The notes beneath the pieces are model-generated. The model was given only the letters and a program-made list of their open reading frames with translations. It did not search any database and was not told the DNA's origin. Of a stretch of DNA of 64,000 bases, positions 3,941 to 54,845 are shown piece by piece. The translations under genes and the position numbers were made by a program. How positions within the stretch are numbered: position 1 is the stretch's first letter; every line of letters starts with the position of its first letter. The DNA lies in sequence record NC_054909.1; one strand, given 5' to 3'. This DNA comes from Escherichia phage EC121.

Positions 3941-3953
3941 AATATTTCCTCAG

Positions 3954-3961: not shown

Positions 3962-3989
3962 TAGATATATTTATTACTCGGAAAATAGT

Positions 3990-4607
3990 ATGTACCACTT
4001 TGTATATGAAACAACAAATCTAATAAATGGTAAAAAGTATATAGGAAAACACTCTACTGATGACTTGAATGATGGTTACCTTGGTTCCGGTAAGGCAATT
4101 CAGCAGGCTATAAAGAAATATGGTGAAAACAATTTCTCTAGAACAATACTAAAAGAGTTTAAAACTTCCGAAGAAGCGTACATGTATGAAGAAGAAATTA
4201 TAACTCCTGAACTAATAAAAAGCAAAAATTATTATAATATGAAACCTGGTGGAATTGGTGGAATTGTTATGACTGCAGAGGTTATAGCAAAGATGAAAGA
4301 ATCTTCCGCTAAGAGATTTGAAAACTCACCGGGCACGGTATTAGGTACAACTTGTTACACTAATGGAACTAAAAATATTTTTATTAAACCTGGAGAACTT
4401 GTTCCAGAAGGATTTGTAAAAGGGATGGTTCATCTTAATAGAAAGTCCAGAAAAGGATGTAAAGTCAAACCGACTACCACAGGAACTTTTTGGGTCAATA
4501 ATGGAGCAATAAATAAATTAATACAACCAGACGGTATTATTCCCGACGGATTTATTAAAGGTCGTCTCATGAAAAGAGACTCTAAAGGCAAATTTAGTAA
4601 GGCATAA
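3990..4607 (+). CDS. segE: GIY-YIG homing endonuclease, Seg family (segE position)
   Basis: 205 aa; N-terminal GIY-YIG module (VYETTNLINGKKYIGKH…GYLGSG); lies between inh and uvsW where T4 segE sits. Confidence 0.75.
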   Translation: MYHFVYETTNLINGKKYIGKHSTDDLNDGYLGSGKAIQQAIKKYGENNFSRTILKEFKTSEEAYMYEEEIITPELIKSKNYYNMKPGGIGGIVMTAEVIAKMKESSAKRFENSPGTVLGTTCYTNGTKNIFIKPGELVPEGFVKGMVHLNRKSRKGCKVKPTTTGTFWVNNGAINKLIQPDGIIPDGFIKGRLMKRDSKGKFSKA

Positions 4608-4609
4608 TT

Positions 4610-6118
4610 ATGGATATTAAAGTACATTTTCACGACTTCAGTCATGTACGCATCGATTGTGAAGAGAGCACGTTCCACGAATTAAGAGATTTCTTTTCGT
4701 TTGAGGCCGATGGATATAGGTTTAATCCTCGCTTCAGATATGGCAACTGGGATGGACGAATCCGTCTTTTAGATTATAATCGCCTTCTTCCATTCGGTTT
4801 AGTCGGGCAAATTAAAAAGTTCTGTGATAACTTTGGCTATAAAGCCTGGATTGACCCGCAAATTAACGAAAAAGAAGAATTATCAAGAAAAGATTTTGAT
4901 GAATGGCTTTCTAAATTAGAAATCTATTCAGGAAATAAAAGAATTGAACCGCATTGGTATCAAAAAGATGCAGTGTTCGAAGGATTAGTTAATCGTCGTA
5001 GAATTCTTAATCTTCCAACATCCGCAGGTAAATCTTTAATTCAAGCTTTGCTTGCTCGGTATTATTTGGAAAATTATGAAGGTAAAATTCTTATCATTGT
5101 TCCAACAACTGCTCTGACAACTCAGATGGCTGATGACTTTGTTGACTATCGTTTATTCAGTCATGCAATGATAAAGAAAATCGGCGGTGGAGCATCAAAA
5201 GATGATAAATATAAAAATGATGCACCAGTCGTTGTTGGTACATGGCAAACTGTAGTAAAACAACCGAAAGAATGGTTCTCACAGTTTGGAATGATGATGA
5301 ATGATGAATGTCATCTTGCTACAGGAAAAAGTATTTCATCTATCATATCAGGTTTAAATAACTGTATGTTTAAATTTGGTTTGTCTGGTTCATTACGTGA
5401 TGGCAAAGCTAATATCATGCAGTATGTTGGAATGTTTGGCGAAATATTTAAGCCAGTAACGACTTCTAAATTAATGGAAGATGGACAAGTAACTGAGTTA
5501 AAAATTAATAGTATTTTTCTTCGCTATCCCGATGAGTTCACTACTAAATTAAAGGGAAAAACTTACCAAGAAGAAATAAAAATTATTACTGGACTCAGTA
5601 AAAGAAATAAATGGATCGCTAAATTAGCTATTAAGCTTGCACAAAAAGATGAAAACGCTTTTGTCATGTTTAAACACGTATCGCACGGTAAAGCTATTTT
5701 CGATTTAATTAAAAATGAATACGATAAAGTTTATTACGTATCAGGGGAAGTTGATACCGAAACACGCAACGTAATGAAAACCTTAGCTGAAAACGGTAAA
5801 GGAATAATTATAGTAGCTAGTTATGGTGTATTTTCTACTGGTATTTCAGTTAAAAATCTGCATCACGTTGTTTTAGCGCACGGTGTTAAATCAAAAATCA
5901 TTGTATTACAAACAATCGGTCGTGTATTACGTAAGCACGGTTCTAAGACAATAGCAACGGTCTGGGACCTCATAGATGACGCGGGCGTAGTTTCTAAATC
6001 AAAAACATCTTCTAAAAAATACTCGCATTTAAACTATCTTTTAAAACATGGACTTGATCGTATTCAGCGTTATGCTGATGAGAAGTTTAATTATGTGATG
6101 AAAGAGGTTAAACTTTGA
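4610..6118 (+). CDS. uvsW: UvsW DNA/RNA helicase (SF2)
   Basis: 502 aa (T4 UvsW length); N-terminus MDIKVHFHDFSHVRIDCEES… and Walker A TSAGKS, DExH-like NDECH motifs. Confidence 0.9.
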   Translation: MDIKVHFHDFSHVRIDCEESTFHELRDFFSFEADGYRFNPRFRYGNWDGRIRLLDYNRLLPFGLVGQIKKFCDNFGYKAWIDPQINEKEELSRKDFDEWLSKLEIYSGNKRIEPHWYQKDAVFEGLVNRRRILNLPTSAGKSLIQALLARYYLENYEGKILIIVPTTALTTQMADDFVDYRLFSHAMIKKIGGGASKDDKYKNDAPVVVGTWQTVVKQPKEWFSQFGMMMNDECHLATGKSISSIISGLNNCMFKFGLSGSLRDGKANIMQYVGMFGEIFKPVTTSKLMEDGQVTELKINSIFLRYPDEFTTKLKGKTYQEEIKIITGLSKRNKWIAKLAIKLAQKDENAFVMFKHVSHGKAIFDLIKNEYDKVYYVSGEVDTETRNVMKTLAENGKGIIIVASYGVFSTGISVKNLHHVVLAHGVKSKIIVLQTIGRVLRKHGSKTIATVWDLIDDAGVVSKSKTSSKKYSHLNYLLKHGLDRIQRYADEKFNYVMKEVKL

Positions 6119-6807
6119 ATTATAAATTAATATACGATAATTTAATTAATAGAGCCCAGAATCGGGCTCGCCTTAATGGATACACTGAAACTCATCATAT
6201 AATTCCTAGATGTATGGGCGGTACAGATGATAAGTGTAATTTGGTAGAACTAACAGCTGAAGAGCATTTTATAGCTCATAAACTTTTAGCTAAAATTCAT
6301 CCAAACCATTACGGTATAATTAAAGCCGTTATATGTATGGGGATGAATTCAAAGACTCATGAAAGACACGTTAATAAATCTTACGCCTGGGAACGTCGTA
6401 AAATGGCAGAACTTCAATCAGGTGAAGGTAATCCATTTTACGGAAAACACCATACGGAAGAACATAAACAATATATGTCAAAACTCATGAAAAATCGTCC
6501 AATTACATGGGGAAGTAAAATTAGTAAAACTAAAAGAATGAACCCAACAAAATGGACTGAAGAAGCTAAAAGATTGCATTCTATCAATCAATCAGGTAAA
6601 AATAATGGCATGTATGGAAGGAAACATTCCGCTAAATCTATTCAGAAAATTAAAGATAATATGCCAGATAATTCAGGAGCTAATAACCCAGCTGCTAAAC
6701 CTATAGAAGTAAATGGTGTTAAGTATAAATGTATGAAAGATGCTTCTAAAGCTACTGGATTATCAATGTACAAACTAAGAATACTTAGAAAAACAGTTAA
6801 TTTATAA
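6115..6807 (+). CDS. HNH homing endonuclease, Mob-like, with NUMOD-type DNA-binding repeats
   Basis: 230-aa ORF starting at TTG that overlaps the uvsW stop (TTGA); N-terminal ~65 aa are paralogous to the mobE product in this window (…ETHHIIPRCMGG…NLVELTAEEHFIAHKLL…); C-terminus has GK(H/R)HxxE repeats. Confidence 0.75.
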   Translation: MNYKLIYDNLINRAQNRARLNGYTETHHIIPRCMGGTDDKCNLVELTAEEHFIAHKLLAKIHPNHYGIIKAVICMGMNSKTHERHVNKSYAWERRKMAELQSGEGNPFYGKHHTEEHKQYMSKLMKNRPITWGSKISKTKRMNPTKWTEEAKRLHSINQSGKNNGMYGRKHSAKSIQKIKDNMPDNSGANNPAAKPIEVNGVKYKCMKDASKATGLSMYKLRILRKTVNL

Positions 6808-6832
6808 GGGCTTCGGCCCTTTGGAGAAAAAG

Positions 6833-7063: not shown

Positions 7064-7118
7064 ATTAAAAAAGGCCCAACCAAAAAGGAAGGGCCAAAAC
7101 TATAGACTAAAGGTCACA

Positions 7119-7286: not shown

Positions 7287-7314
7287 GATTGTCTCCTCTG
7301 AATTATATATCTAT

Positions 7315-7539: not shown

Positions 7540-7952
7540 TATTTTCCAGCCTCAAATGCCCGCATGTCTTGAATATGCTTAATAGCAAATCCACGTGATT
7601 TAATAGCATCAAGAGCTCCGCTACAGAAATCTAATAAAATCCCCCAATACTGTAACGAGGTATCAACCTTTAAAACATCCTTATCAGCTGATAGAACTGT
7701 TTTCATTTCTGATTTCTCATAACGATCCATACTAAATTCATCACCATCTCCTCGTCCCGAGTAGTAGTCTAATTTAGCTTTAAGAGCAACTTTTTTCTGT
7801 GCTTCAATTCTAAGCATTTCCTTTTTAATACTTGAATGCTTATTAAGCCATTTACTATATAACATCACATTATTAGCTGCTTCATACTGTAATTTAGTCG
7901 AATCTATAAACACATCTTTCTTCAATTCTTCTTGAAGATCTTCTAATCTCAT
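7539..7952 (-). CDS. uvsY: UvsY recombination mediator
   Basis: 137 aa (T4 UvsY length); sequence MRLEDLQEELKKDVFIDSTKLQYEAANN… consistent with T4 UvsY. Confidence 0.9.
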   Translation of the reverse strand: MRLEDLQEELKKDVFIDSTKLQYEAANNVMLYSKWLNKHSSIKKEMLRIEAQKKVALKAKLDYYSGRGDGDEFSMDRYEKSEMKTVLSADKDVLKVDTSLQYWGILLDFCSGALDAIKSRGFAIKHIQDMRAFEAGK

Positions 7953-7989
7953 ATTGTTCTCTATTCAATTGTTATTGGATGGACTTAGA

Positions 7990-8022
7990 TTCATTATACC
8001 ACGTTTTAACGTGAAGCATTAT
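7990..8022 (-). promoter_or_regulatory. MotA-dependent middle promoter for uvsY
   Basis: On the minus strand: MotA box TGCTTCA, 13-nt spacer, then -10 TATAAT about 40 nt upstream of the uvsY ATG. Confidence 0.5.
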
Positions 8023-8417
8023 ACTCTATTACTGGAAGCCAGTTGCAGTTTTATCTGCTCAATATCATCAGGGTTATCAATGACCGAAAAGCGTATTTCT
8101 ACTATCAGAGTATAATCATCATAAACTGGTATTACATTAACTGCTAATTTATCAATACGCGGCTCGTAGTTTCTTACTGCGCTTTCAATGTTACGCTCAA
8201 CAGTATCAGCAGTAAGAGGAGTCATATTCTCAAAAAGCTGATCAGATAAATCACATCCAAATTCCGGGTCAAATGGTCTCGACCCTTTTCTGGTTGTAAT
8301 AATTCCCAAAAGGCTATTTTTAATTGACCTTAATCCAAGAGATCTAGAAACATCTTTGTCCCAATCCATTTTCATTTCTGGGTCAATGTCAGAATAAAGC
8401 TTATTAATATTTGCCAT
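8019..8417 (-). CDS. 25: Baseplate wedge protein gp25
   Basis: 132 aa; [28 protein letters not shown]… matches T4 gp25. Confidence 0.9.
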   Translation of the reverse strand: MANINKLYSDIDPEMKMDWDKDVSRSLGLRSIKNSLLGIITTRKGSRPFDPEFGCDLSDQLFENMTPLTADTVERNIESAVRNYEPRIDKLAVNVIPVYDDYTLIVEIRFSVIDNPDDIEQIKLQLASSNRV

Positions 8418-9043
8418 TACAATAGCTCAAAGAATTCTTTGAGTCCTCTTATTACATGAGCGTGAGATTTTCCACACTCTGGACACTTAATTGGAACAGC
8501 CAAATACACAGTAGGCTTTAAAAGCATATCTTTTATAGCTACAATATCTGACTCTGTGATGATAGAATATAAATCTTCCAACTCTTTTTCATTTAAGTCT
8601 TCAATTGGAATGCTTTCACCGTTAGCATGAATCGTTTCTATACATGATACTATCATGTGGGCTATATTTTTATCATCAAAAATTTTAGGGTAATGGAACT
8701 TAATTTTAATGTCACCCAGTGTATACCAGAGGTCTTCTGGTGCATCTATTTGTGTATGTAATAGATTTATATGGGTTGGTATTTCAGTTCCGCAGGTGCA
8801 CTTCCAGGAGTTTTCGTGATTAACTTCGCCGAGAGAATGTGCCCATAAATGAATCAACAATAGTTCTGATTCTTGGCGGTTTAAATCTTTTGCATTTGTG
8901 CAGTCTTTGATTAGCTTTTTAACAATTACTTCTACGGAACCATTATTTTTGGCAGTAATAAGTTCTAGATATTCTTTAAGCGTGAATGCGCGACAATTGA
9001 TTATTTTAGAACCAACTCTCACATCAAATTTGTATTCATACAT
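8417..9043 (-). CDS. 26: Baseplate hub protein gp26
   Basis: 208 aa (T4 gp26 length); TAATG coupling to gene 25; synteny. Confidence 0.8.
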
Positions 9044-9065
9044 ATTTTAGCTCCTTTATTTATCA

Positions 9066-9077
9066 TATTTATAAATA
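9066..9077. promoter_or_regulatory. Overlapping divergent late promoters for gene 26 (minus) and gene 51 (plus)
   Basis: TATTTATAAATA contains TATAAATA on both strands (9070-9077 plus, 9066-9073 minus), centred between the two divergent genes. Confidence 0.55.
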
Positions 9078-9094
9078 GAATAAAAGGAGCATCT

Positions 9095-9844
9095 ATGGCA
9101 AACATTATTCGTTGTAAATTACCAGATGGTGTTCATCGTTTTAAACCATTTACGGTAGAAGATTATCGAGATTTTTTGTTAGTTCGAAACGATATAGAAC
9201 ATCGGTCACCACAAGAACAAAAAGAAATAATTACTGATTTAATTGATGATTATTTTGGAGACTATCCGAAGACTTGGCAACCATTTATATTTTTGCAGGT
9301 ATTTGTAGGGTCAATAGGTAAAACTAAAGTACCGGTCACATTTGTATGTCCAAAATGTAAAAAAGAAAAGACAGTTCCATTTGAAATATATCAAAAAGAA
9401 TTAAAGGAACCTATTTTTGATGTAGCTAATGTTAAAATTAAATTAAAGTTTCCTTCTGAGTTTTATGAAAATAAAGCAAAGATGATTACTGAAAATATTC
9501 ATTCTGTTCAAGTAGATGAAATATGGTATGATTGGAAGGAAATTAACGAGTCCAGTCAAATAGAACTAGTTGACGCCATCGAGATAGAAACATTAGAAAA
9601 AATTCTCAATGCAATGAATCCTATTAATTTAACTCTACATATGTCATGCTGTAATAAGTACATTAAAAAATACACTGATATAGTAGACGTGTTTAAGCTA
9701 TTAGTTAACCCAGATGAGATATTTACTTTTTATCAAATTAATCACACACTCGTAAAAAGTAATTATAGCTTAAATTCAATAATGAAAATGATTCCTGCTG
9801 AGCGCGGATTCGTATTAAAACTGATTGAGAAGGATAAACAATAA
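9095..9844 (+). CDS. 51: Baseplate hub assembly protein gp51
   Basis: 249 aa (T4 gp51 length); synteny. Confidence 0.8.
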
Positions 9845-15660: not shown

Positions 15661-15714
15661 TCCTCATGTTATGTCAGTAAGACTACTATAACACAACACG
15701 AGGGACTTGTAAAC
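15661..15714 (-). promoter_or_regulatory. T4-type early promoter plus leader, cassette copy 1
   Basis: Minus strand reads GTTTAC, 18-nt spacer, TATAGT, then a leader with GAGGA ahead of the ATG; 53 of 54 bp identical to 30938-30991. Confidence 0.55.
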
Positions 15715-17771
15715 TACATTTTGAACTTTTTAGACATTCCGTTGATGTTAACCAAAGAAGCTAAGATTTGAGAAACTTCGTTTTCCTCTTCTTTTGATTC
15801 TTCTACAAGGAATTGATTAAATCCAGCCATTGGACGAACTTCACCAGTTTCCATTAGATGGTCGCCATCATATACTGATTCTTCTAATTGTTCAGAAGGA
15901 GGAACGATTGTGCCTTCAATTAGATACTTGTTATAAGCAGTTTCTTTCATCATGTACGTGCTTACTTTATTAATCTTCAACAAAATTCCACGCGGTAGAA
16001 TAACTTCAGCTTCTGATGGAAATCCTGATAAATGACCTGGAACGATAACTTTAATTCGCTCAGCTCCTTTTATTACCATACCCACGCTAGTTTCAGCATC
16101 TTCATTAGCATATGCGGAATGACTACCCATATGCATTAAATCTTCGGCATCAACAGAACCTTCTCCTTCACCAGAAAATACTGCGCCGGAATCATCTAGA
16201 GCCATATAGTTTTTACCATGCTCACCGAAGATATTTGGTTTAAGCGATGTTGATACGAAGTTCTTGAAATAGAACATTTTATTTTCAATATTATGGCGTA
16301 AAGTTTTAAAAGTAACTTCTTGTCCACGATAAAGCGTAGTTCCCGGAGGAAGAACTGATCCTTTGGCGAATGCAGAATCCAACGTCTCGATGTGTTTAAT
16401 AGCTCGTTCCATGTATTCTTCACGGGTAGAATCTGGTTTACCCAAGAGGAACGAGTTCATTTCAACATATGAATCTGCACAATAATCTTCAATTACATCA
16501 GACTCAGCCTGAGTCAGTCCTTTTGGAGTTACTTCGGTGCTTGCGTATTCATATGCCTGAGCAGCAGATTCATTAATCAATTTATAAATGCCATTCATGA
16601 CAAATTGAATAATAGCTACCTTTTCGTCTGGTGTGGCTTTAGAACCTTTAACTAAATCATTGATAATTTTCTTAATAACATCAAAGCTATTAGAAATATT
16701 AATGTCAGCGAGATCGCTCAAAATTTTATCGGTTTTATAATCAAAAAATTCTTTATTCTTTAAATATTCTTGAGAACCTTGATGTGTTATATCGCTCTGC
16801 AGTCTGATAGACGGATCACGTAAACGTGCATGGGCCAATGCAATATGATTTCGGAAGCTTTCTAGTTCATAATCGTTAGATTTAAAACGAGAAGCACTTC
16901 TCATACCACCGATAGCTCCTTTGCCGAAGTTTGAACCAATCTGAATAACGCCAGAGTTCATTGGTCCTTCTGCTTTATATACAGGAACTTTAGATTCAAA
17001 CTCTTGATATTTCTTGGCAGCGAAGCTATCACCCTGAAGTGAAGCATCGACAGTAGAATATTGAGCTTGCGCTGCTAATCGACGACTAATTTTAGTTTTC
17101 TGAATAACAGCTTGATCCGTGCGCTTATCATTTTCTAAAGCAATAGAAGCAGCAACAGCAACAGCTTTAGGAACAGCATTACCTGTTTTAACATCTACAT
17201 AAACATCACCAACCTTTGATTCAACTTTTGTGAATAACTCAGTTGAAATAGGAGGTACGCCTGGAATGTCTTCTAAATTGGCATTTTTACGGTAAACCAT
17301 AATATATGCATACTTTTTATCATAATCCCAGATTTCCTTTAAAAGAACATATCGACCTGCTCCTTTAGTACGTACTAAACGATCAGCAATAACTTGCATT
17401 TGACGAGCTGCGCCATTTGTTTTACTTTTTAGTACGCGGAATAGGCATGCGTCAATTTTATACTGTTTCATTGTTTGAAGAGCAGTATCAAAAACCGCAT
17501 TAATGACACCAATTGGATTTCCACCCAAGTTTTTAAGTTTAACTAATGATAGTTTCTCATTAACACCTATCATTACGATATGCATCATTTTATCGCCTGG
17601 CTTAACGTTTTTATTTGTATCACCACCAGAGGTGTATGTACAAAATCTAAATCCAGGAAGCACACTTTCTTCGCCGGCTTGAATAGCAAAAATTTGAGGT
17701 ATTTTATGCTTAGGATTTAAGTTAACAACCGGCGCCGAAGCGCCGTCAAATAATTCTGTAATAAGTTCCAT
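15714..17771 (-). CDS. Alt-like ADP-ribosyltransferase, paralog B
   Basis: 685 aa; N-terminal ~230 aa highly similar to the adjacent Alt; C-terminus keeps ART motifs (LYRGQ, FVSTSL, SEAEVILPRG); middle region diverged. Confidence 0.8.
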   Translation of the reverse strand: MELITELFDGASAPVVNLNPKHKIPQIFAIQAGEESVLPGFRFCTYTSGGDTNKNVKPGDKMMHIVMIGVNEKLSLVKLKNLGGNPIGVINAVFDTALQTMKQYKIDACLFRVLKSKTNGAARQMQVIADRLVRTKGAGRYVLLKEIWDYDKKYAYIMVYRKNANLEDIPGVPPISTELFTKVESKVGDVYVDVKTGNAVPKAVAVAASIALENDKRTDQAVIQKTKISRRLAAQAQYSTVDASLQGDSFAAKKYQEFESKVPVYKAEGPMNSGVIQIGSNFGKGAIGGMRSASRFKSNDYELESFRNHIALAHARLRDPSIRLQSDITHQGSQEYLKNKEFFDYKTDKILSDLADINISNSFDVIKKIINDLVKGSKATPDEKVAIIQFVMNGIYKLINESAAQAYEYASTEVTPKGLTQAESDVIEDYCADSYVEMNSFLLGKPDSTREEYMERAIKHIETLDSAFAKGSVLPPGTTLYRGQEVTFKTLRHNIENKMFYFKNFVSTSLKPNIFGEHGKNYMALDDSGAVFSGEGEGSVDAEDLMHMGSHSAYANEDAETSVGMVIKGAERIKVIVPGHLSGFPSEAEVILPRGILLKINKVSTYMMKETAYNKYLIEGTIVPPSEQLEESVYDGDHLMETGEVRPMAGFNQFLVEESKEEENEVSQILASLVNINGMSKKFKM

Positions 17772-17774
17772 GAT

Positions 17775-19871
17775 TTATCCTTGAACGAACTTGTAAGGCA
17801 TGTTTGTAATATCTATGCAAGACGCAATAATTCCAAGAGATGATTCTACTTTTTGTTTAACATTTGATGAAACAAATGATGCAAAGTCAACTCTGTCTTC
17901 TATTTCAATATCACCTGTCATTGCAACTACTTCACCAGTTTCCATTAGACGGTCACCGTCATAAATTACTGATTCGGTGAGTTCTTCCGTAGTCATAACT
18001 TCAGCTTGAATGAGTTTTGTATTATTAGATGTTGTTCCGTCATTATTAGAAGCATCAGTTATTTTATTAACTTTGACCATCAATCCGCGTGGTAGAATAA
18101 CTTCAGCTTCTGTTGCTATTCCGAGACTTCCTGGATATACAACATTAACTTTATGAGCTCCATCAATTGCCCATCCTATTTGAACTTTAACGTATTCAGG
18201 ATTTTCTTTATACGCTCTTATTTCGTTTGGATTAATAGTTATTCCTTCTTCATTTTTATCAACTGTTAATTCATTACGAGCTTCTGGTTCTAAAAGACCA
18301 ATACCAGCATGTGTAATTCCAAAACGTCCAAAAATGATAGGAGTTAAAGAAGTAGATACAAAATTTCTGAAATAGAATACTTTATTTTTAACTAGTGCTT
18401 CGTATATAGGAGCAGTCATACTTTGAGCACGATAAACTGTAATGCCTTCTGGTATACGGTCACCATTTTCAAAAGCTGAATCTAAGTTATTTATAGCAGA
18501 TTCAATTTCTTTTTCACTCATTACATCATATCGTTCTGGATTGTAGCGTCCTAAAAGAAGATTATTGATGTCAGTATATCCTGAACCGCAATACTCTCTA
18601 ATGCCGCGCTTTTGTGATGGAGTATATTTAGAACCATCACGGGCAATAGTAATATCAATCATTGGACCTGCACCAATTCCAGAAAAGCTATAAATCATTC
18701 GTTTGAGGAATTTAGTTTTTGCTGCGTTCCAGGAATTTTTAGTTATTTCTTCCCAGACTTCATCTGGCTGTCCTTTACGGGTTTTATTATGTTTATCAAG
18801 CCAATTATCTTTATATTCTTCAAAGAGTTGATTAACAGCTGCTGCGTATTTCTCCAAACATTTTATTGAAGTAGTTGGTTCATTTTTAATCGCATTAAGA
18901 ATTACATCTTTAATCTTTTCAGAAACTTCATTAACCTCACTTTTTGAAAAGAATTTATAGTCATAATGAAGTTCATCTGCAGTTCCTTCAGCAATAATTT
19001 TTGCTGCCTTAGTTTTAGAAGCTAATGAATTAATTCCAAGCTTCATTTCTTCTGCTTCGGGAATTAAAGGAGCTGTAGCAGGTTTATTGAAATTAGCTGC
19101 GGTAGATTCATACTTCTGGAATAATTCACTTTCAAATCTAGAAGATTCTAATGATTGACTTTGTGCAATTGCTCTACGGGAAATTTTAACTTTAACGATT
19201 ACAGCTTGGTCAGAACGTTTATCGTTTTCTTGCGCAATAGATGCTGCAATTGCCTCATTTTTAGTTACTTGAGCTCCGGTATCTTTATTGATATAAACAT
19301 CACCGACCTTCGATTCAACTTTAGTAAAGAGCTCGGTACTAATTTCTGGAACTCCTGGAATGTCTTCTAGTGATACATTTTTACGATGTATAAGAATATA
19401 TGCATACTTTTTATCGTAATCCCAGAGTTCCTTAAGAAGGACGTATCTGCCACCTGAACGACTACGGATAAGTCTATCAGCAATAACTTGAATTTGTCGA
19501 GCTTGGCCAGCAGTTTTAGACTTAAGAATACGAAGCATACAAGCATCAATTTTATATTGACGCATTGTTTGCATTGCAACAGTAAAAACTGAATTGATAT
19601 AATTAATTGGGCTTGGACCAAGACCTTTTAATTTAGCAATTGAACCTTTAGCAGTTAATGTAAAAGGAACAATGTGCATCATTTTGTCGCCCATTTTTAA
19701 ATCGCGATTAGTATCACCTCCAGATGTATATGTACATAAACGAAAGCCTGGTTGTTCAATTGCATCATCAACATGAACTGAAAAAATTTGTGGTATTTTC
19801 TTCTTTGGATTTAAGTTTGTAATCGGAAGAGTAGTATCTTCGTCAAATAATTCTGTAATAAGTTCCATCAT
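17775..19871 (-). CDS. alt: Alt ADP-ribosyltransferase (virion-packaged, modifies host RNA polymerase alpha in T4)
   Basis: 698 aa; ART motifs VYRAQ, FVSTSL, ATEAEVILPRG; sits next to gene 30 as in T4; late promoter upstream. Confidence 0.8.
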   Translation of the reverse strand: MMELITELFDEDTTLPITNLNPKKKIPQIFSVHVDDAIEQPGFRLCTYTSGGDTNRDLKMGDKMMHIVPFTLTAKGSIAKLKGLGPSPINYINSVFTVAMQTMRQYKIDACMLRILKSKTAGQARQIQVIADRLIRSRSGGRYVLLKELWDYDKKYAYILIHRKNVSLEDIPGVPEISTELFTKVESKVGDVYINKDTGAQVTKNEAIAASIAQENDKRSDQAVIVKVKISRRAIAQSQSLESSRFESELFQKYESTAANFNKPATAPLIPEAEEMKLGINSLASKTKAAKIIAEGTADELHYDYKFFSKSEVNEVSEKIKDVILNAIKNEPTTSIKCLEKYAAAVNQLFEEYKDNWLDKHNKTRKGQPDEVWEEITKNSWNAAKTKFLKRMIYSFSGIGAGPMIDITIARDGSKYTPSQKRGIREYCGSGYTDINNLLLGRYNPERYDVMSEKEIESAINNLDSAFENGDRIPEGITVYRAQSMTAPIYEALVKNKVFYFRNFVSTSLTPIIFGRFGITHAGIGLLEPEARNELTVDKNEEGITINPNEIRAYKENPEYVKVQIGWAIDGAHKVNVVYPGSLGIATEAEVILPRGLMVKVNKITDASNNDGTTSNNTKLIQAEVMTTEELTESVIYDGDRLMETGEVVAMTGDIEIEDRVDFASFVSSNVKQKVESSLGIIASCIDITNMPYKFVQG

Positions 19872-28359: not shown

Positions 28360-29559
<1,200 letters not shown>

Positions 29560-30994: not shown

Positions 30995-32582
<1,588 letters not shown>

Positions 32583-32590
32583 AATAAAAT

Positions 32591-32604
32591 GGGCCTTGCG
32601 GCCC
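32591..32604 (-). terminator. Hairpin (attenuator/terminator) between nrdB and denA
   Basis: GGGCC-TTGC-GGCCC hairpin followed on the minus strand by ATTTTATTAT. Confidence 0.45.
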
Positions 32605-32609
32605 ACTCC

Positions 32610-33788
32610 TTAAAAGTATTTTTTAAAACTCATCATAACTTTATCATCAACATCATTATCAATCTGTGCAACAAGATAAGATGACAGTTCTACTTCTTGC
32701 GGCGCGGATTGAACATTATCAGAATTAAGGTATTCACGAATCCAAGGATATGGATGTTTAACCGGAGCATCGGTAATCGGGCATGGAAGACCACACTGTT
32801 TCATACGAGATACAGTTAAGTAATCAATAAAGCTCCACATGCTATTTGTATTTAATCCAGGAACATCGCCATCTTTAAATAAATGAACTGCCCAATCTTT
32901 TTCTTGACGGTTAACTTCCATGAAAATATCAACTGCTTCTTGTTCACACTCTTTGGCAATTTTAACCCATTCATCGCCATCAGTACCAGATTGAAGTTGA
33001 CGAATAATATATTGTGTACCTTTAAGATGAAGCTGCTCATCACGTGCAATAAATTTCATAATCTTCGCATTACCTTCCATGATTTCCATGTTCTTATGGA
33101 AGTTGAAAGTACATGCAAAGGATACATAAAAACGAATAGCTTCCAGAGCATTGATAACGTGCAGACAGAGATAAAGCGACTTCATCAGGTCTCGTTTACA
33201 TTCTTCCAAATGAGTGAGACTGTTTGAATATGCTTCTAAATCATATTCATTTTCAGCAAAATAACTAAAGTTTTCTTTGGCGTTTTCCCAAATACGTGTC
33301 TTGTCCAGAACATCATCATAATAACGACCCATAGATTCAGCACGTTTCATGATAGCTTTATCTAATACAATCTCATCAAATACCCTTGACGGATCAGTAT
33401 AAAGATTTCGCATAATATGAGTGTATGAACGACTGTGAATAGTTTCACTAAAAGTCCATGTAGCAACCCATGTATCAAGGCTTGGGTCTGAAATCAATGA
33501 CATAAGTACAGCAGACGGTGCACGACCCTGAATGCTATCCAGAAGTGATTGATACTTCAGATTATTAGTAAAAATATTCTGCTGATATTGAGGAAGCTTA
33601 TTAAACTGTGCAGCATCCATCATTAAGTTTACTTCTTCAGGACGCCAGAAAAATGATAATTGCTTTTCGGTCAAATCTTCAAAAACTTTATGGCGTTGAA
33701 TATCATAACGCGCAATACCAAGACCTGAACCAAAAAACATAGGTTCTTTTAAAACATCAACTGGATTTGTATTAAAAACTGTAGACAT
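32610..33788 (-). CDS. nrdB: Ribonucleotide reductase small subunit NrdB, intronless
   Basis: 392 aa from the Met at 33788 (AGAGGA Shine-Dalgarno; TAATG overlap with the mobE stop); continuous ORF with no intervening sequence. Confidence 0.9.
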   Translation of the reverse strand: MSTVFNTNPVDVLKEPMFFGSGLGIARYDIQRHKVFEDLTEKQLSFFWRPEEVNLMMDAAQFNKLPQYQQNIFTNNLKYQSLLDSIQGRAPSAVLMSLISDPSLDTWVATWTFSETIHSRSYTHIMRNLYTDPSRVFDEIVLDKAIMKRAESMGRYYDDVLDKTRIWENAKENFSYFAENEYDLEAYSNSLTHLEECKRDLMKSLYLCLHVINALEAIRFYVSFACTFNFHKNMEIMEGNAKIMKFIARDEQLHLKGTQYIIRQLQSGTDGDEWVKIAKECEQEAVDIFMEVNRQEKDWAVHLFKDGDVPGLNTNSMWSFIDYLTVSRMKQCGLPCPITDAPVKHPYPWIREYLNSDNVQSAPQEVELSSYLVAQIDNDVDDKVMMSFKKYF

Positions 33789-34519
33789 TAATTTTTCCTC
33801 TTTAAAATTCTGCCGCGTTTCCAACCTGGCGGTATAATATCATCTTTACCTATAAGCGTGCATTCACTTCCATTATTAATCCATTTCTTACCGCGGATTC
33901 CTTTATAATCTCTTGGTTGTATTTTGTCAAACTTTGCATCAGGTTGATATGCCCATCTAAATCCATAGGCATATTGAAATTTACCCTCAGCACAATATTT
34001 GATATTTGACCCGTTTCCATTAACTGACCTGGACGCTGCCGCAATAGAGTGAAAGGTTTCTATGAAATCCCCATCTAATGAGAATTTATGTATTTCGATA
34101 GATGGGCATGCATACCTATTCACGTTTGATACATGTCGTTTAGTTTCGTTTTTATGATGCTTGCCTAACATTCCTCTAGGATGAGGATTATTTTTCCAGT
34201 ATTTCTTAAAGAAATCAGAATTAGCTTTAGCAAATAATTTTCTGTGCAAGCTATACAATCTGTTATTAATTCTATTACCAGCTTTATCTGTTGCCATTAA
34301 CGTTAACGCAGAGGCAAGCCCAAAATGGCCTTCATTTATCTTACATAGTAATAGATGCGCTATAAAATGTTCTCTAGCTGTTAATTCAACTAAATTTTCT
34401 TTATCATCAGAACCTCCCATGCATTTAGGGACTATATGATGTGTCTCTTTATATTCGGATAAAGGTTCCCGAGCCTGAGCTCGGGAAATTAGGTCGTTAT
34501 AGATTTTTTGATAATTCAT
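33788..34519 (-). CDS. mobE: HNH homing endonuclease MobE (free-standing)
   Basis: 243 aa; HNH core (ETHHIVPKCMGG…NLVELTAREHFIAH); lies between nrdA and nrdB as T4 mobE does; TAATG-coupled on both sides. Confidence 0.8.
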   Translation of the reverse strand: MNYQKIYNDLISRAQAREPLSEYKETHHIVPKCMGGSDDKENLVELTAREHFIAHLLLCKINEGHFGLASALTLMATDKAGNRINNRLYSLHRKLFAKANSDFFKKYWKNNPHPRGMLGKHHKNETKRHVSNVNRYACPSIEIHKFSLDGDFIETFHSIAAASRSVNGNGSNIKYCAEGKFQYAYGFRWAYQPDAKFDKIQPRDYKGIRGKKWINNGSECTLIGKDDIIPPGWKRGRILKRKN

Positions 34520-36783
34520 TACAATTTACACGCTGCACAATCGTCGGCTTTTGGAGTTTCTATTTCATAATCATCAGTACCGGAACCATCACGGGTATTA
34601 TGATAATAGAAATTTTTAATGCCATAATACCATCCGTATAGCATATCATCAATCATTATTGACATTGGAACCTTTCCTTTTGGAAAAATCTGCGGGTCAT
34701 AATATGTATTCGCTGAAGCTGATTGACATACCCATTTAAGCATAATAGCTACCTGCGTAAGATAAGGTTTATTACCTTTCTTAGCTAATTTCCATGTATA
34801 ATCATAGAGGTCTATGTTATGTTCAATATTGGGCACGACTTGATTAAAGGAACCCTCTTTTGATTCTTTAACAGAGACTGGTCCACGTGGAGGCTCGATA
34901 CCGTTTGTACTGTTAGAAACTTGGGAAGATGACTCACATGGCATAAGTGCTGATAATGTGCTATTACGGATGCCAAAGAGCTTAAGGTCTTCCCGCAGCT
35001 CCGACCAGTCACAAACGTATTTTGGAGCTGCGATTTGGTCAATCTTTTTATTGTACCAGTCGATAGGTAATTCGCCTCGAGACCAACGAGTGTCTGAATA
35101 ATATTCGCAAGGTCCTTTTTCTTTGGCGAGCTTAATGGATGCTTTAATGAGCCCATACTGTAATCTCTCAAATAGTTCATGTGTTAAATCGTTAGCATCT
35201 TCATAAGAAGCAAAGTTACTTGCCAGCCAAGCTGCATAGTTAGTAACACCTACGCCAAGGTTTCGACGCTTTTTAGCTTTTTCTGCTTCAGGAACTGGAT
35301 ATCCTTGGTAATCCAAAAGATTATCAAGAGCGCGAACTTGAACTTCTGCTAATTCATTAATTTTATCTTGGTCTTGCCAATCAAAGTTATCCAACACAAA
35401 TGCAGATAACGTGCACAATCCAATTTCAGCATCAGGACTATTCACATCATTTGTTGGAATAGCAATTTCACAACACAGGTTACTCTGACGAATCGGTGCC
35501 TTTTCACGAATAAATGGAGTATAGTTATTCGTATTATCAATGAACTGTACATAAATCCTTGCTGTTCCTGAGCGTTCAGTCATGAGCAATTCAAACAGTT
35601 CACGGGCTTTAATACGCTTTTTACGAATATTAGGGTCTTTTTCTGCAGCTTCGTATAATTCACGGAAACGGTCTTGGTCTTTAAAATAAGAATAATAAAG
35701 CTCGCCACCCATTTCATGCGGACTGAACAAAGTAATGTAGTCGTTCTTTCCGAATCGTTCCATCATCAAATCATTCAGCTGGACACCATAATCCATATGG
35801 CGGATACGGTTTTCTTCTACGCCTTTGTTATTTTTCAAAACGAGAAGATTTTCAACTTCCAAATGCCAAATAGGATAATAAGCAGTAGCAGCGCCGCCAC
35901 GAATTCCACCCTGTGAGCATGATTTAACAGCAGTCTGAAAATGTTTCCAAAAAGGAATAACACCAGTATGGCGTACTTCACCTGTGCCAATCTTAGAACC
36001 TTCGGCACGAATCATACCAACGTTAATACCAATTCCAGCGCGTTTGGAGATATATTCAACAATTGAAGCGGAAGCCTTATTGATAGACTTCAGCGAATCA
36101 CCTGCTTCAATAACAACGCATGAACTAAACTGCCGGGTTGGAGTACGACATCCAGCCATAATAGGAGTTGGCAATGAAATCTGTCGAGTAGATACCGCTT
36201 CATAAAAACGGATAACGTGTTTTAATCTATCAACAGGTTCATCTTGATGCAATGCCATTCCAATAGTCATAAATGCAAACTGTGGAGTTTCATAAATTTG
36301 ACCAGTGGTTTTATCTTTAACTAGATATTTTTCTTTTAATTGCATCGCCCCGGAATAAGTAAATTCCATATCCCGTTCATGCTTAATTTTTGATTCTAAA
36401 AATGTAATTTCTTCTGCTGAATATTTTGACAACAATTCAGGGTCATATTTACCTTCATTTACGCAGTAAGAAATATGGTCAATAAATGAACGTGGTTCAT
36501 ACTGTCCATAAACATGCTTACGAAGAGCGAACATTAAACAGCGTGCAGCTACGTATTGATAATCAGGCTCTTCAACTGAAATAGAATTCGCAGCAGCCTT
36601 AATTACAATGGTTTGAATGTCATCAGTTGTCATTCCATCACGGAGATATGATTTAATATTTTCATATAATTCATAAGGATCTACTGATGTTCCTTCAGCT
36701 GCCCAAGATAAAACTTTAATAATTTTTTGTGGGTCAAAGCTCTGAGAAACACCACTACTTTTGATAACATTAATTAATTGCAT
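34519..36783 (-). CDS. nrdA: Ribonucleotide reductase large subunit NrdA
   Basis: 754 aa (T4 NrdA length); ATP-cone N-terminus and class Ia catalytic motifs. Confidence 0.95.
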   Translation of the reverse strand: MQLINVIKSSGVSQSFDPQKIIKVLSWAAEGTSVDPYELYENIKSYLRDGMTTDDIQTIVIKAAANSISVEEPDYQYVAARCLMFALRKHVYGQYEPRSFIDHISYCVNEGKYDPELLSKYSAEEITFLESKIKHERDMEFTYSGAMQLKEKYLVKDKTTGQIYETPQFAFMTIGMALHQDEPVDRLKHVIRFYEAVSTRQISLPTPIMAGCRTPTRQFSSCVVIEAGDSLKSINKASASIVEYISKRAGIGINVGMIRAEGSKIGTGEVRHTGVIPFWKHFQTAVKSCSQGGIRGGAATAYYPIWHLEVENLLVLKNNKGVEENRIRHMDYGVQLNDLMMERFGKNDYITLFSPHEMGGELYYSYFKDQDRFRELYEAAEKDPNIRKKRIKARELFELLMTERSGTARIYVQFIDNTNNYTPFIREKAPIRQSNLCCEIAIPTNDVNSPDAEIGLCTLSAFVLDNFDWQDQDKINELAEVQVRALDNLLDYQGYPVPEAEKAKKRRNLGVGVTNYAAWLASNFASYEDANDLTHELFERLQYGLIKASIKLAKEKGPCEYYSDTRWSRGELPIDWYNKKIDQIAAPKYVCDWSELREDLKLFGIRNSTLSALMPCESSSQVSNSTNGIEPPRGPVSVKESKEGSFNQVVPNIEHNIDLYDYTWKLAKKGNKPYLTQVAIMLKWVCQSASANTYYDPQIFPKGKVPMSIMIDDMLYGWYYGIKNFYYHNTRDGSGTDDYEIETPKADDCAACKL

Positions 36784-37100
36784 AAGTCCTCAACTTGAAA
36801 ATCGTCTTTAAACAATCGGTTAACTATATGAGCTATTATATCACCATGACACGGCTTCAGTTTACATGTGCATCCTAGCCTCATTCCACGTAAAGGCTCT
36901 AAATGTGCTTTAGTTATTTCTCCGGATTTAATTCGACGTATAAAATCTTTTTTGAATAATTCAATGGCAGCCTCCCGGCTGCCAGCATCTTTACCGACGT
37001 AATTTCCCCAAAATGTACCACGGTGAATATTAACATCAAAGTCGGATTTATATTTATTCACTACCTGACATAGACGGCCCGCGCGGTGATAATTCGTCAT
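36774..37100 (-). CDS. Hypothetical protein (nrdA.1 position)
   Basis: 108-aa ORF. Confidence 0.5.
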
Positions 37101-37329
37101 ATTGTTTTTCCGTTAAAACAGTAATATCATAATAACAATCAGAAGAAGTTTTAACTGTAGAAATTTTATTATCAAAATACTCACGAGTCATTTTATGAGT
37201 ATAATATTTTTTGCCATAAATGATAATAGGCTGATTTGGTCCTGGAACTTCTAACTCGCTTGGATTAGGAAGTGTAAAAAGAACGACACCAGAAGTATCT
37301 TTAAATCGTAAAATCATATATCCTCGCAA
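37054..37329 (-). CDS. Hypothetical protein (nrdA.2 position)
   Basis: 91-aa ORF; likely starts at an internal Met. Confidence 0.45.
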
Positions 37330-37337
37330 TAATAAAA

Positions 37338-37649
37338 TTACACCGCCATCTTTCCTTTAATAGGAGGATGTGATTCATAGTTGTTAAGAACAAAATTATG
37401 AGGCTTTGCAAATTGACTCAACCAAAATACCTGCGATTCTGTGTCCCATTCATCAAATTCATCTGGAAATTTTAATTGTAATTCGCATAAATCCATAGGT
37501 TCACGACATAAAATTTCTTTACATTGTTCTACGTGATTCATATAGATATGAGTATTACCACCAGAAAATATCAAATCTCCAGGAATAAGATTACACATCT
37601 TAGCTACAATATGAACTAACGTAGCATATGATGCAATATTAAATGGTAG
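37338..37649 (-). CDS. td: Thymidylate synthase, exon 2
   Basis: Encodes [19 protein letters not shown]…PPIKGKMAV; begins immediately after the intron 3' end (…CATAATG|CTACCATTT). Confidence 0.9.
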
Positions 37650-38665
37650 CATTATGTTCAGATAAGGTCGTTAATCTTACCCCGGAATTATATCCAGCTG
37701 CATGTCACCATGCAGATCAGACTATATCTCCAACTTGTTAAAGCAAGTTGTCTATCGTTTCGAGTCACTTGACCCTACTCCCCAAAGGGATAGTCGTTAG
37801 GCATTTATGTAGAACCAATTCCATTTATCAGATTTTACACGATAAGTAACTAATCCAGACGAAATTTTAAAATGTCTAGCTGCATCTGCTGCACAATCAA
37901 AAATAACCCCATCACATGAAATCTTTTTAATATTACTAGGCTTTTTACCTTTCATCTTTTCTGATATTTTAGATTTAGTTATGTCTGAATGCTTATGATT
38001 AAAGAATGAATTATTTTCACCTGAACGATTTCTGCATTTACTACAAGTATAAGCAGAAGTTTGTATGCGAACACCGCACTTACAAAACTTATGGGTTTCT
38101 GGATTCCAACGCCCGTTTTTACTTCCGGGTTTACTGTAAAGAGCTTTCCGACCATCAGGTCCAAGTTTAAGCATCTTAGCTTTAACAGTTTCAGAACGTT
38201 TCTTAATAATTTCTTCTTTTAATGGATGCGTAGAACATGTATCACCAAACGTTGCATCAGCAATATTGTATCCATTAATTTTAGAATTAAGCTCTTTAAT
38301 CCAAAAATTTTCTCGTTCAATAATCAAATCTTTCTCATATGGAATTTCTTCCAAAATAGAACATTCAAACACATTACCATGTTTGTTAAAAGACCTCTGA
38401 AGTTTTATAGAAGAATGGCATCCTTTTTCTAAATCTTTAAAATGCCTCTTCCATCTCTTTTCAAAATCTTTAGCACTTCCTACATATACTTTATTGTTTA
38501 AAGTATTTTTAATCTGATAAATTCCGCTTTTCATAAATACCTCTTTAAATATAGAAGTATTTATTAAAGGGCAGTCCTACAATTTAGCACGGGATTGTCT
38601 ACTAGAGAGGTTCCCCGTTTAGATAGATTACAAGTATAAGTCACCTTATACTCAGGCCTCAATTA
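37650..38665 (-). mobile_element. Group I self-splicing intron in td (1016 nt) carrying the I-TevI ORF
   Basis: 5' end UAAUUGAGGCCUGAGUAUAAGGUGACUUAUACUUGUAAUCUAUCUAAACGGGGAACCUCUCUAG… and 3' end …GGGGUAAGAUUAACGACCUUAUCUGAACAUAAUG match the T4 td intron as I recall it; same length. Confidence 0.88.
37797..38534 (-). CDS. I-TevI: Intron-encoded GIY-YIG homing endonuclease I-TevI
   Basis: 245 aa; MKSGIYQIKNTLNNKVYVGSAKDFEKRWKRH… with GIY-YIG N-domain, zinc finger (CKCGVRIQTSAYTCSKC) and C-terminal HTH; inside the td intron. Confidence 0.92.
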   Translation of the reverse strand: MKSGIYQIKNTLNNKVYVGSAKDFEKRWKRHFKDLEKGCHSSIKLQRSFNKHGNVFECSILEEIPYEKDLIIERENFWIKELNSKINGYNIADATFGDTCSTHPLKEEIIKKRSETVKAKMLKLGPDGRKALYSKPGSKNGRWNPETHKFCKCGVRIQTSAYTCSKCRNRSGENNSFFNHKHSDITKSKISEKMKGKKPSNIKKISCDGVIFDCAADAARHFKISSGLVTYRVKSDKWNWFYINA

Positions 38666-39213
38666 ACCCAAGAAAACATCTACTGATCGCTGATACCACT
38701 GCAGATCCAAATAGCCATTACGCACATTAAATTGATAGAACATATGACAAGGTGGTAATGCCATTTGCTTGAGTTCTGCCGGATTCCATGCTGAAACAAT
38801 TTGACGTCTATCATTTGGCAGTTTTTTAATACGTTCAACAACTTCTATAATTTGATCTACGCCACCAAAATCGCGCCACTGTTTTCCATAAATTGGACCA
38901 AGTTCACCGCTATGGTATCCTAAATCTTTTGCTTGATTTTCGTAATTTTCATCCCAAACTGTTTTGCCTTGGATTAACGAATCATGTTGAATTAATCGCA
39001 AATCATTGACATTTGTGCTTCCCGATAAAAACCATATTAGCTCAGCAATACAGGCTTTCCATGCTAATTTTTTAGTTGTTACCACAGGAAAACCTTTAGT
39101 TAAATCCCAGCGTAATTTAGTACCGAACAAAGCAATTGTTCCTGTGCCTGTTCGGTCATCGGTTTCATAGCCATTTTCCAGAATATCTTTAATTAAAAAT
39201 TGGTATTGTTTCA

Positions 39214-39214
<1 letters not shown>
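38666..39214 (-). CDS. td: Thymidylate synthase, exon 1
   Basis: Starts at MKQYQFLIKDILENGYETDDRTGTGT… (ATG 39212-39214) and ends …RSVDVFLG at the 5' splice site; the ORF track extends it to an upstream TTG. Confidence 0.9.
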
Positions 39215-40243
<1,029 letters not shown>

Positions 40244-40251
40244 ATTATCTC

Positions 40252-40587
40252 CTAATATAAAGGATCGGGAACATATCCACTGGCTTTAATCATTTTAATT
40301 AACGTTAGCAGTCCTTTATTAACTGCTTGTGAGATTTCATCAAAAACTTCATCACTAAAAAGTTCTAACACGCCCTTCTGAACTTTTAATTTACAACCAA
40401 TAATTTCGTCATCGCCTATAGTAAATTCGTTTCCGCCAATTCCACCGAAAAACTTAATTACGCCAGTTAACTGTCTTCCACGAGAATATGGGTCGTGTGA
40501 TAAAGTAATATGAGTCACCCCAGGTACAGTTTTAAATTGGCAGCGAATGTTTACTTGGGAAATTCCAGTTACGTGAATGTCAGACAT
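40252..40587 (-). CDS. Hypothetical protein
   Basis: 111-aa ORF. Confidence 0.5.
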   Translation of the reverse strand: MSDIHVTGISQVNIRCQFKTVPGVTHITLSHDPYSRGRQLTGVIKFFGGIGGNEFTIGDDEIIGCKLKVQKGVLELFSDEVFDEISQAVNKGLLTLIKMIKASGYVPDPLY

Positions 40588-42603: not shown

Positions 42604-42694
42604 TTTTATTTCCTTTTTAATTTAATTAACAGTTGGTGCTATGACGATGTATGACCTCATAGCTGGTCAGTGAGATAATTATAATCTATTTATA
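42604..42694 (-). promoter_or_regulatory. Gene 32 leader: translational operator (pseudoknot plus AU-rich tract) and promoters
   Basis: Minus strand reads …GCUAUGAGGUCAUACAUCGUCAUAGCAC…UUAAUUAAAUUAAAAAGGAAAUAAAAAUG, the gp32 autoregulatory leader; TATAAATA (late) and GATTATAAT lie upstream. Confidence 0.6.
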
Positions 42695-42702
42695 ATAAGC
42701 AA

Positions 42703-50692: not shown

Positions 50693-54815
<4,123 letters not shown>

Positions 54816-54845
54816 TTTGAATAAATATCCTTAAAAGGAGGGTCT

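Follow-up and report, generated by a model that had tools for sequence, protein, structure and literature searches.

Homing endonucleases are patchily distributed among T-even phages. The described systems closest to the locus analyzed here are the td–nrdA–nrdB regions of phages T4, T6 and RB3. In T4 (NC_000866), nrdB carries a 598-nt intron with a defective I-TevIII, and mobE is annotated with 141 aa, plus nrdB.1. RB3 (KM606994) and the near-identical phages RB5, RB6, RB7, RB9 and RB10 have a 1091-nt nrdB intron with an intact I-TevIII. The combination of a td intron, an nrdB lacking its intron and a mobE gene is already a known state, published for T6 (MH550421 / AP018814). T4 MobE nicks T2 nrdB at nt 122–126, in a polymorphic region of nt 114–131; deletion of its residues 33–62 abolished nicking, it drags the nrdB intron along in trans, and its gene contains a weak internal terminator (PMC2790892). 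A UAAUGA coupling of nrdA and mobE has also been described for T4 (PMC2988022).

We examined a 64,000-nt stretch of Escherichia phage EC121 (NC_054909.1), hereafter the window, in which the td, nrdA, mobE and nrdB genes all lie on the minus strand. The window belongs to a Tequatrovirus and is collinear with T4 at 108.1–168.9 kb with 92–97% identity. The nrdB intron and segG of T4 are missing from it, and an additional mob-like gene separates uvsW from uvsW.1; this agrees with the description in a first-pass annotation of a T4-like phage, distinct from T4, with a mixed intron and homing-endonuclease state. We computed directly the anatomy of the region, its identity to experimentally characterized elements, the contrast between intron and exon identity, and the presence of this state in further phages. 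From these data we conclude with high confidence that the region is a normal Tequatrovirus td–nrdA–nrdB nucleotide-metabolism cluster into which two selfish elements, the td intron with I-TevI and mobE, were acquired independently. Nothing that we found contradicts this explanation.

The td gene is split into exon 1 (38666..39214, minus strand; 549 nt) and exon 2 (37338..37649, minus strand; 312 nt) by a group I intron (37650..38665, minus strand) of exactly 1016 nt, the length that had been annotated, which is 100% identical to the td introns of T6 and RB3. The annotated range of the locus, 32610–38665, ended at the first intron base and so omitted exon 1, but the observations made within it hold. 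The junctions read ...CTTGGGT|TAATTG... and ...CATAATG|CTACC..., such that exon 1 ends in U and the intron ends in G; the predicted spliced junction joins the CTTGGGT end of exon 1 to CTACCATT. Reconstruction across this junction yielded a 286-aa Td, equal in length to, and collinear with, the product of the td gene of T2 and Jbel, which has no intron. From the T4 reference, the intron differs at two positions, a 1-nt indel in a T-run at nt 92, upstream of the I-TevI ORF, and an A/C difference at nt 949, in a stretch that is unpaired in the Rfam group I model and lies between the last two 3′ helices.

When the whole window was searched with the Rfam group I intron model (RF00028) at the gathering threshold, no match was obtained, because the 738-nt I-TevI ORF splits the intron core. 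The 3′ core of the window's intron alone scored 42.5 bits (E 4e-9), under the gathering score of 50, and the td intron of phage PYps55T, which naturally lacks the ORF and agrees fully with the window's intron in the conserved core segments, scored 66.9 bits (E 4e-16). Given this sub-threshold match and the passing score of the ORF-less relative, we did not take the missing gathering-level match to speak against an intron. What is said here of splicing, of cleavage by I-TevI, of the activity of MobE and of how these genes are regulated draws on the T4 literature. As the td intron is 100% identical to those of T6 and RB3 and differs from that of T4 at two positions, it would be expected to self-splice by the guanosine-dependent route; its removal from td mRNA would give the full-length 286-aa thymidylate synthase.

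The intron contains an intact I-TevI ORF (37797..38534, minus strand) of 245 aa, full-length as annotated. The protein is without a single amino-acid difference from T4 I-TevI (245/245), as it is in T6, RB3 and EC101, so that inactivating changes, which the annotation had allowed for, are absent relative to T4. Its architecture consists of an N-terminal GIY-YIG domain, a zinc-finger linker and a C-terminal minor-groove/HTH DNA-binding domain, with Pfam matches above the cut-offs for GIY-YIG (PF01541), I-TevI_ZnF (PF22635) and I-TevI_DNA-bd (PF20987); residues 1–97 match the PDB chains 1MK0 and 1LN0, and residues 130–245 match 1I3J, each over the full length of the chain. Judging from this identity, the enzyme would be expected to cleave the intronless td homing site. 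It would cut the intronless td of co-infecting phages 23–25 nt upstream of the insertion site, and double-strand-break repair would then copy the intron, together with short exon flanks, into the cut gene. In the phages that share the 100% identical intron, td exon 1 is only 91–95% and exon 2 only 70–96% identical, while the flanks are conserved for 24 nt before the intron, identical in all intron-bearing relatives compared, and for up to 89 nt after it, identical to RB3. Intron identity amid diverged exons, with short conserved flanks, is the mark left by recent homing in which short tracts are co-converted. Sandegren and Sjoberg (2004) reportedly described such a pattern as 'recent transfer of old introns', and an intron that is 100% identical across phages whose exons differ by 5–10% or more restates this known pattern.

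At the other end of the cluster, nrdB (32610..33788, minus strand), encoding the small subunit of class Ia ribonucleotide reductase (392 aa; Pfam Ribonuc_red_sm, 6e-37), is one continuous ORF, as had been read from the sequence, with no intron in the codon-225 region. Its length equals that of the intronless nrdB of T2, and it is collinear with the spliced nrdB of T4 and RB3. The alignment with T4 proposed in the first-pass annotation located the empty intron site between nrdB nt 676 and 677 (33112..33113, minus strand): the T4 and RB3 introns each form one gap after nt 676 of the window's gene. A cryptic intron or insertion within nrdB was rejected; collinearity is broken only by an in-frame hypervariable patch, which is also present in T4_ev151 and Jbel. 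No match to I-TevIII was found by tblastn in the 64-kb window.

Between nrdB and nrdA lies a free-standing HNH homing endonuclease gene, mobE (33788..34519, minus strand; 243 aa; phrog_655, 1e-57), of the type found in RB3. The annotated TAATG coupling on both sides is borne out by the junction sequences, TTGTAATGAAT for nrdA/mobE and AATTAATGTCT for mobE/nrdB, both of which contain TAATG, in overlap with the nrdA stop codon and the nrdB start codon, respectively. Wedged in this position, mobE would be translationally coupled to nrdA through the UAAUG overlap. Its 5′ end contains a hairpin (34466..34487, minus strand) with a 9-bp stem and a UCAG loop, followed by CCUUUAU and folding at −16.7 kcal/mol (z −3.6); this hairpin corresponds to the weak terminator inside T4 mobE. 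Consensus promoter and terminator scans of positions 32500–39500 gave counts no higher than those of shuffled sequences and missed the hairpin because its U-tract is short; we recognized it by reading the sequence and by folding. To spread, the element would nick or cut genomes without mobE close to the nrdA/nrdB junction, and gene conversion would follow.

The remaining genes of the cluster are nrdA (34519..36783, minus strand; 754 aa; Pfam ATP-cone, Ribonuc_red_lgN and Ribonuc_red_lgC), an nrdA.1 homolog (DUF4326; 36774..37100, minus strand), identified by Pfam in the position of T4 nrdA.1, and an nrdA.2 homolog (DUF5496; 37054..37317, minus strand), identified by Pfam (2e-58) and T4 annotation, the start of which is probably an internal ATG, considering its 264-nt length in T4. 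A tblastn search of the window with nine nuclease proteins gave four homing-endonuclease loci, the number that had been annotated, and none beyond them. In addition to mobE and I-TevI, they comprise segE (3990..4607, plus strand), a free-standing GIY-YIG homing endonuclease gene upstream of uvsW that is collinear with T4 segE (Pfam SegE_GIY-YIG), and a mob-like HNH gene between uvsW and uvsW.1 (6115..6807, plus strand; phrog_655, 2e-61; NUMOD3). The latter locus is a 678-bp insertion relative to T4, which lacks this gene; the product is 47% identical to MobE over its N-terminal 133 aa, with a sub-threshold Pfam HNH match, and the gene was found in 47 phage records. We did not count denA, a GIY-YIG protein that is the host-DNA endonuclease II, as a homing endonuclease; the denA query matched only denA.

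The intact appearance of the td intron or of I-TevI could be misleading if either were a decayed, non-functional copy. Decay does happen in this family, as seen from the ORF-less or shortened td introns of relatives such as PYps55T and HMD-9 (24–32% coverage), but for the window's copy we consider it extremely improbable, given that the intron is the same, base for base, as in T6 and RB3, that I-TevI has the amino-acid sequence of the T4 enzyme, and that the intron departs from the T4 reference only by the T-run indel before the ORF and by one base unpaired in the model. A stronger challenge concerns nrdB, which we take to come from an intronless lineage, like those of T2 and T6. Alternatively, nrdB could once have contained the I-TevIII intron, and recombination, either with a spliced cDNA or with an allele lacking the intron, could have removed it precisely; the absence of the intron would then be secondary. 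In RB3 and the phages nearly identical to it, an RB3-type mobE does stand beside an nrdB that contains the intron, and the dragging of the nrdB intron in trans by T4 MobE makes an intron-carrying donor of mobE plausible. However, the flanks of the empty site differ from the T4 exon junction at −8, −2, +5 and +8, and the variants at −8, +5 and +8 are synonymous, absent from T4 and RB3 and common to the intronless T4_ev151, which argues for an old intronless allele over a fresh, precise deletion. The whole of nrdB, including the hypervariable patch, is 98–100% identical to the intronless genes of T4_ev151 and Jbel as against 90–94% to those of RB3 and T4, nrdB and mobE together are 99.1% identical in DNA to T4_ev151, and the RB3-type mobE occurs with an intronless nrdB in at least T4_ev151, Jbel, EC101 and KMB39. 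Loss of the intron therefore seems unlikely, and descent from an intronless lineage is the reading that we prefer.

A more balanced question is whether the window's MobE is the functional equivalent of T4 MobE. Residues 1–60 are nearly identical to those of T4 and T6 MobE, and this is the reason for the HNH assignment, as the Pfam HNH model did not reach its threshold on MobE. BLASTP similarity to T6 MobE ends at about residue 101, and in a multiple alignment with T4 and T6 the C-terminus is unrelated: NUMOD1 takes the place of their NUMOD3/Cys-His region, and the last 32 aa resemble SegE. A PDB sequence search with MobE gave no match. The nrdB segment homologous to the T4-MobE nick region of T2 (nt 114–131; 33658..33675, minus strand) is T2-like rather than T4-like, with only two synonymous differences from T2 and one more at nt 132; the divergence of its own nrdB at the nick site that is expected of a phage with a T4-type mobE is absent from the window. 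T4_ev151 does not differ from T2 at any position of nrdB nt 91–160, a stretch in which T4 and T6 have strongly diverged, and phages with the RB3-type mobE are T2-like across nt 1–210, the nick site included. The fixed differences between genomes with the RB3-type mobE and those without mobE, of which four were compared, are confined to the last ~28 nt of nrdA and to nrdB codon 2.

That the phage's own nrdB is T2-like at the T4-MobE nick site suggests that the RB3-type MobE may recognize a different target. The enzyme might be a domain-swapped relative of T4 MobE rather than its equivalent, with a target that is most likely the junction of the nrdA 3′ end with the nrdB start instead of nrdB nt 122–126; alternatively, it might cut mobE-containing and mobE-less genomes alike, with no discrimination between own and foreign DNA. 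We hold this reading tentatively, at somewhat less than even chances, since the catalytic N-terminus is nearly identical to that of T4 MobE and the locus is the same, some mobE-containing phages in the published logo already keep AAG at codon 42 (PMC2790892), and the comparison rests on four mobE-less genomes. If it is true, two or more endonucleases that differ in specificity and compete for a single intergenic site would share the name mobE. As it stands, the commonest mobE allele, the RB3 type, differs from the sole experimentally studied MobE in an unrelated C-terminal part, with no matching 'immunity' changes in nrdB; these two features together are the only point of the region with some follow-up value.

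We then placed the window among its relatives. The full-length td intron was found in 195 phage records, the nrdB intron in about 129 and the RB3-type mobE in 53. An IMG/VR scan with NrdB yielded 34 loci, mostly from more distant T4-like phages, and provided a few mobE-less comparators; it also yielded a relative with only 82% NrdB identity (L017), in which an intronless nrdB occurs with an RB3-type mobE and an I-TevI-like ORF. A td intron, an nrdB without an intron and mobE are annotated together in T6, EC101, T4_ev151 and KMB39. With T4, the window shares the gene order, segE, the nrdA/mobE UAAUGA overlap and the mobE 5′ hairpin, whereas T4 has segG and no gene between frd and td. The RB3 group shares the 243-aa type of mobE, at 98–100% DNA identity, but differs in its nrdB intron. 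T6 has the identical 1016-nt td intron with I-TevI, an intronless nrdB, mobE between nrdA and nrdB, and the same allele of the variable segment of td exon 2; it differs in a 213-aa MobE, the NUMOD3/Cys-His C-terminal part of which is unrelated to that of the window, in a 388-aa nrdB product whose gene has diverged in its 5′ 140 nt, and in another ORF (348 nt) between frd and td. The td intron with I-TevI, the RB3-type mobE and the intronless 392-aa nrdB recur together in EC101 (OL310488), T4_ev151 (LR597660) and vB-Eco-KMB39, of which EC101 also has the 68-aa ORF between frd and td; these phages are only 95.8–97.4% identical to the window over 7.9 kb, with a different mosaic in the nrdB patch, the td exons and the frd–td ORF. 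Each homing element is inherited independently, both of the other elements and of the backbone, which makes 'mixed' states the norm in T-even phages; the pattern of introns and endonucleases in the window is ordinary because the same combination is already present in T6 and many sequenced relatives. The window thus adds one further Tequatrovirus genome, of little consequence in itself, in which, as in T6, mobE and a mobile td intron occur with an nrdB that has no intron.

The window is a Tequatrovirus segment collinear with T4 from ~108.1 to 168.9 kb at 92-97% nucleotide identity, and it carries several insertions, deletions and replaced segments relative to T4, which supports the first-pass reading of a phage that is T4-like but not T4. 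T4 segG is missing, with 35 nt between genes 32 and 59 (42667-42701) as against 623 nt in T4; the distal tail-fibre/adhesin region (genes 37-38; 50860-54820) is replaced; a 295-bp insertion lies in the pseT/pseT.1 region (29262-29556); and the frd-frd.1 interval (40019-40530) has two additional small ORFs, one of them DUF7247. Two tandem full-length Alt-like ADP-ribosyltransferase genes (15714-19871, minus strand; 685 and 698 aa) stand where T4 has a single alt and the alt.-1/-2/-3 remnants. All genes of the td-nrdB region are minus-strand genes and follow the gene order of T4: frd - td - nrdA.2 - nrdA.1 - nrdA - mobE - nrdB - denA - rnlA.

The td gene starts at 39214, and its exon 1 (39214..38666, ending in ...CTTGGGT) is separated from exon 2 (37649..37338) by an intron running from 38665 (TAATTGAGGCC...) to 37650 (...ACATAATG), exactly the 1016 nt that had been proposed for a group I intron. 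Joining of the exons yields a 286-aa thymidylate synthase, equal in length to the product of the uninterrupted td of T2 and Jbel. Rfam at its gathering threshold reported no group I intron in the window, because the 738-nt I-TevI ORF sits within the ribozyme; at a relaxed threshold, RF00028 aligned the 3′ core of the td intron (42.5 bits, E 4e-9). The ORF-less td intron of Yersinia phage PYps55T, which is identical to that of the window in the conserved core segments, reaches 66.9 bits, above the gathering score of 50. This natural intron (1204-1517 of the PYps55T record) has lost nearly the entire I-TevI ORF, leaving about 314 nt, and HMD-9 has a similar short form. In the window, I-TevI (38534..37797, minus strand) is full-length, with every one of its 245 residues the same as in T4, so that a check for inactivating changes gave none relative to T4. 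Its GIY-YIG, zinc-finger and DNA-binding domains were recognized by Pfam, and the solved structures of I-TevI domains align to it along their entire lengths.

The intron is the same as those of T6 and RB3, and there is one difference from that of EC101. Against the T4 reference there are two: an indel in a T run at intron nt 92, and an A/C difference at nt 949, which the Rfam alignment leaves unpaired between the final two 3′ helices. A full-length td intron was found in 195 of 50,697 phage records, nearly always (192/195) at 99% identity or more. Phages in which this intron is 100% identical share just 91-95% identity with the window in td exon 1 and 70-96% in exon 2, and the conserved flanks are limited to 24 nt on the 5′ side and at most 89 nt on the 3′ side of the intron. 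Such intron identity with short conserved flanks is what recent I-TevI-driven homing predicts, and such homing may have spread the td intron with short co-conversion tracts in the exon flanks. Likewise, the last ~28 nt of nrdA are common to mobE-bearing genomes of all types and different in mobE-less genomes, a pattern consistent with co-conversion. Separately, the C-terminal part of Td (aa ~225-270; 37370-37510, minus strand) occurs in two very different allelic forms, ~52% identical in DNA; one is found in the window and T6, the other in T4, T2, RB3, EC101, T4_ev151 and Jbel.

Between frd and td, a 68-aa ORF (39214-39420, minus strand; phrog_9550, of unknown function) overlaps its neighbours through ATGA and TAATG, and Pfam detected no domain in it. 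T4 has no gene at this place; an unrelated ORF of 348 nt occupies it in T6, RB3 and T2, and PYps55T has a 207-nt ORF there. In the comparison by sliding-window identity, EC101 was the only other phage with the 68-aa ORF.

The nrdB gene (33788..32610, minus strand) is a continuous 392-aa ORF (Pfam Ribonuc_red_sm), as the first-pass annotation had stated. Alignment placed the T4 (598 nt) and RB3 (1091 nt) nrdB introns each as one gap after nt 676 of the window gene (33113|33112), and comparison with intron-bearing and intronless homologues revealed no cryptic intron. The NrdB proteins of the window and of the intronless T2, EC101, T4_ev151 and Jbel genes are collinear and all of 392 aa. Four positions of the empty site (-8, -2, +5 and +8) are unlike the T4 exon junction, and none of these differences alters the protein. 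Private synonymous variants at the site are present in T4_ev151 too. Therefore, as judged from these variants, the window nrdB more likely stems from an old intronless lineage than from a recent precise loss. The sole poorly alignable stretch of NrdB is an in-frame hypervariable patch (aa ~172-203; 33180-33275), the remainder being at least 97% conserved; at least four unrelated allelic forms of it occur in eight phages, and the form in the window is also that of T4_ev151 and Jbel.

Between nrdA and nrdB lies mobE (34519..33788, minus strand; 243 aa), whose junctions, TTGTAATGAAT and AATTAATGTCT, bear out the proposed TAATG on each side; the UAAUGA overlap of T4 nrdA/mobE, read as translational coupling, has been published (PMC2988022). 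A hairpin within the window mobE (34487..34466; 9-bp GC-rich stem, 4-nt loop, short U-tract) corresponds to the weak internal terminator known in T4 mobE, a feature that mobE-bearing phages conserve (PMC2790892). The window protein falls in phrog_655 ('homing endonuclease') and can be aligned with T6 MobE over only the first ~100 residues, the first 60 being nearly identical; beyond, it is unrelated and carries NUMOD1. The window mobE is of a different type from the T4 allele. RB3 has the same 243-aa form, annotated mobE; this RB3-type form occurs in 53 phage records, and three more distant T4-like phages (L017, L019 and L023) have more diverged copies at the same locus. The last 32 residues of MobE resemble a repeated SegE C-terminal motif (50% identity), an example of the module shuffling typical of homing endonucleases. 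In the T4 reference (6217-6917 of L004), mobE, annotated with 141 aa, and nrdB.1, with 83 aa, together resemble a frame-shifted 213-aa T6 MobE, and NrdB.1 is almost the same as the C-terminus of T6 MobE.

T4 MobE introduces a nick at nt 122-126 of T2 nrdB, and polymorphisms at nt 114-131 were proposed to protect mobE-bearing genomes (PMC2790892). The stretch nrdB nt 1-210 is T2-like in the window and in all other compared phages with RB3-type mobE, T4_ev151 being the same as T2 across nt 91-160; only T4 and T6 diverge in this stretch. Combined with the unrelated MobE C-terminal part, the pattern in this small sample suggests that the target of the RB3-type enzyme may be a different one, or that the enzyme may fail to spare its own genome.

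Searching the window by tblastn with nine nuclease proteins recovered, besides a denA self-match, the four putative homing endonucleases listed earlier: segE (3990..4607; Pfam SegE_GIY-YIG), mobE, I-TevI and a mob-like HNH gene (6115..6807, plus strand) that lies between uvsW and uvsW.1 and constitutes an insertion of 678 bp compared with T4. The HNH gene, absent from T4, is found in 47 phage records and is 100% identical in KFS-EC3. It has an apparent TTG start overlapping the uvsW stop (cTTTGAat), and its N-terminus, MNYKLIY, aligns residue for residue with MNYQKIY of MobE. In both mob paralogues, the equivalent codons ~12-18 (RAQxR) contain a GC-rich hairpin (6152-6169, plus strand, and 34466-34487, minus strand); the uvsW-proximal one has a 6-nt loop and lacks a U-tract, and the mobE copy is the published terminator. 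The C-terminus of the HNH protein (6586-6780, plus strand) is 32% identical (E 1e-5) to the C-terminal DNA-binding region of I-TevI (aa 169-234; 37833-38030, minus strand), and therefore GIY-YIG and HNH enzymes of one genome have a binding module in common.

Homing-endonuclease genes are unequally distributed even among the closest T4 relatives (PMC2993671). An nrdB intron occurs in ~129 phage records, 85 of them with full-length I-TevIII. EC101, T4_ev151 and KMB39 have the same state as the window, with RB3-type mobE. In L017 (IMGVR_UViG_2706796116_000001; 2506-9176), whose NrdB is 82% identical, td is split at the identical codon, with an I-TevI homologue (76% identity) inside the split, nrdB is intronless, and an RB3-type mobE is present (66%/58% identity). 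T6 likewise combines the td intron and I-TevI with mobE and an intronless nrdB, and this T6-like feature is already known and ordinary.
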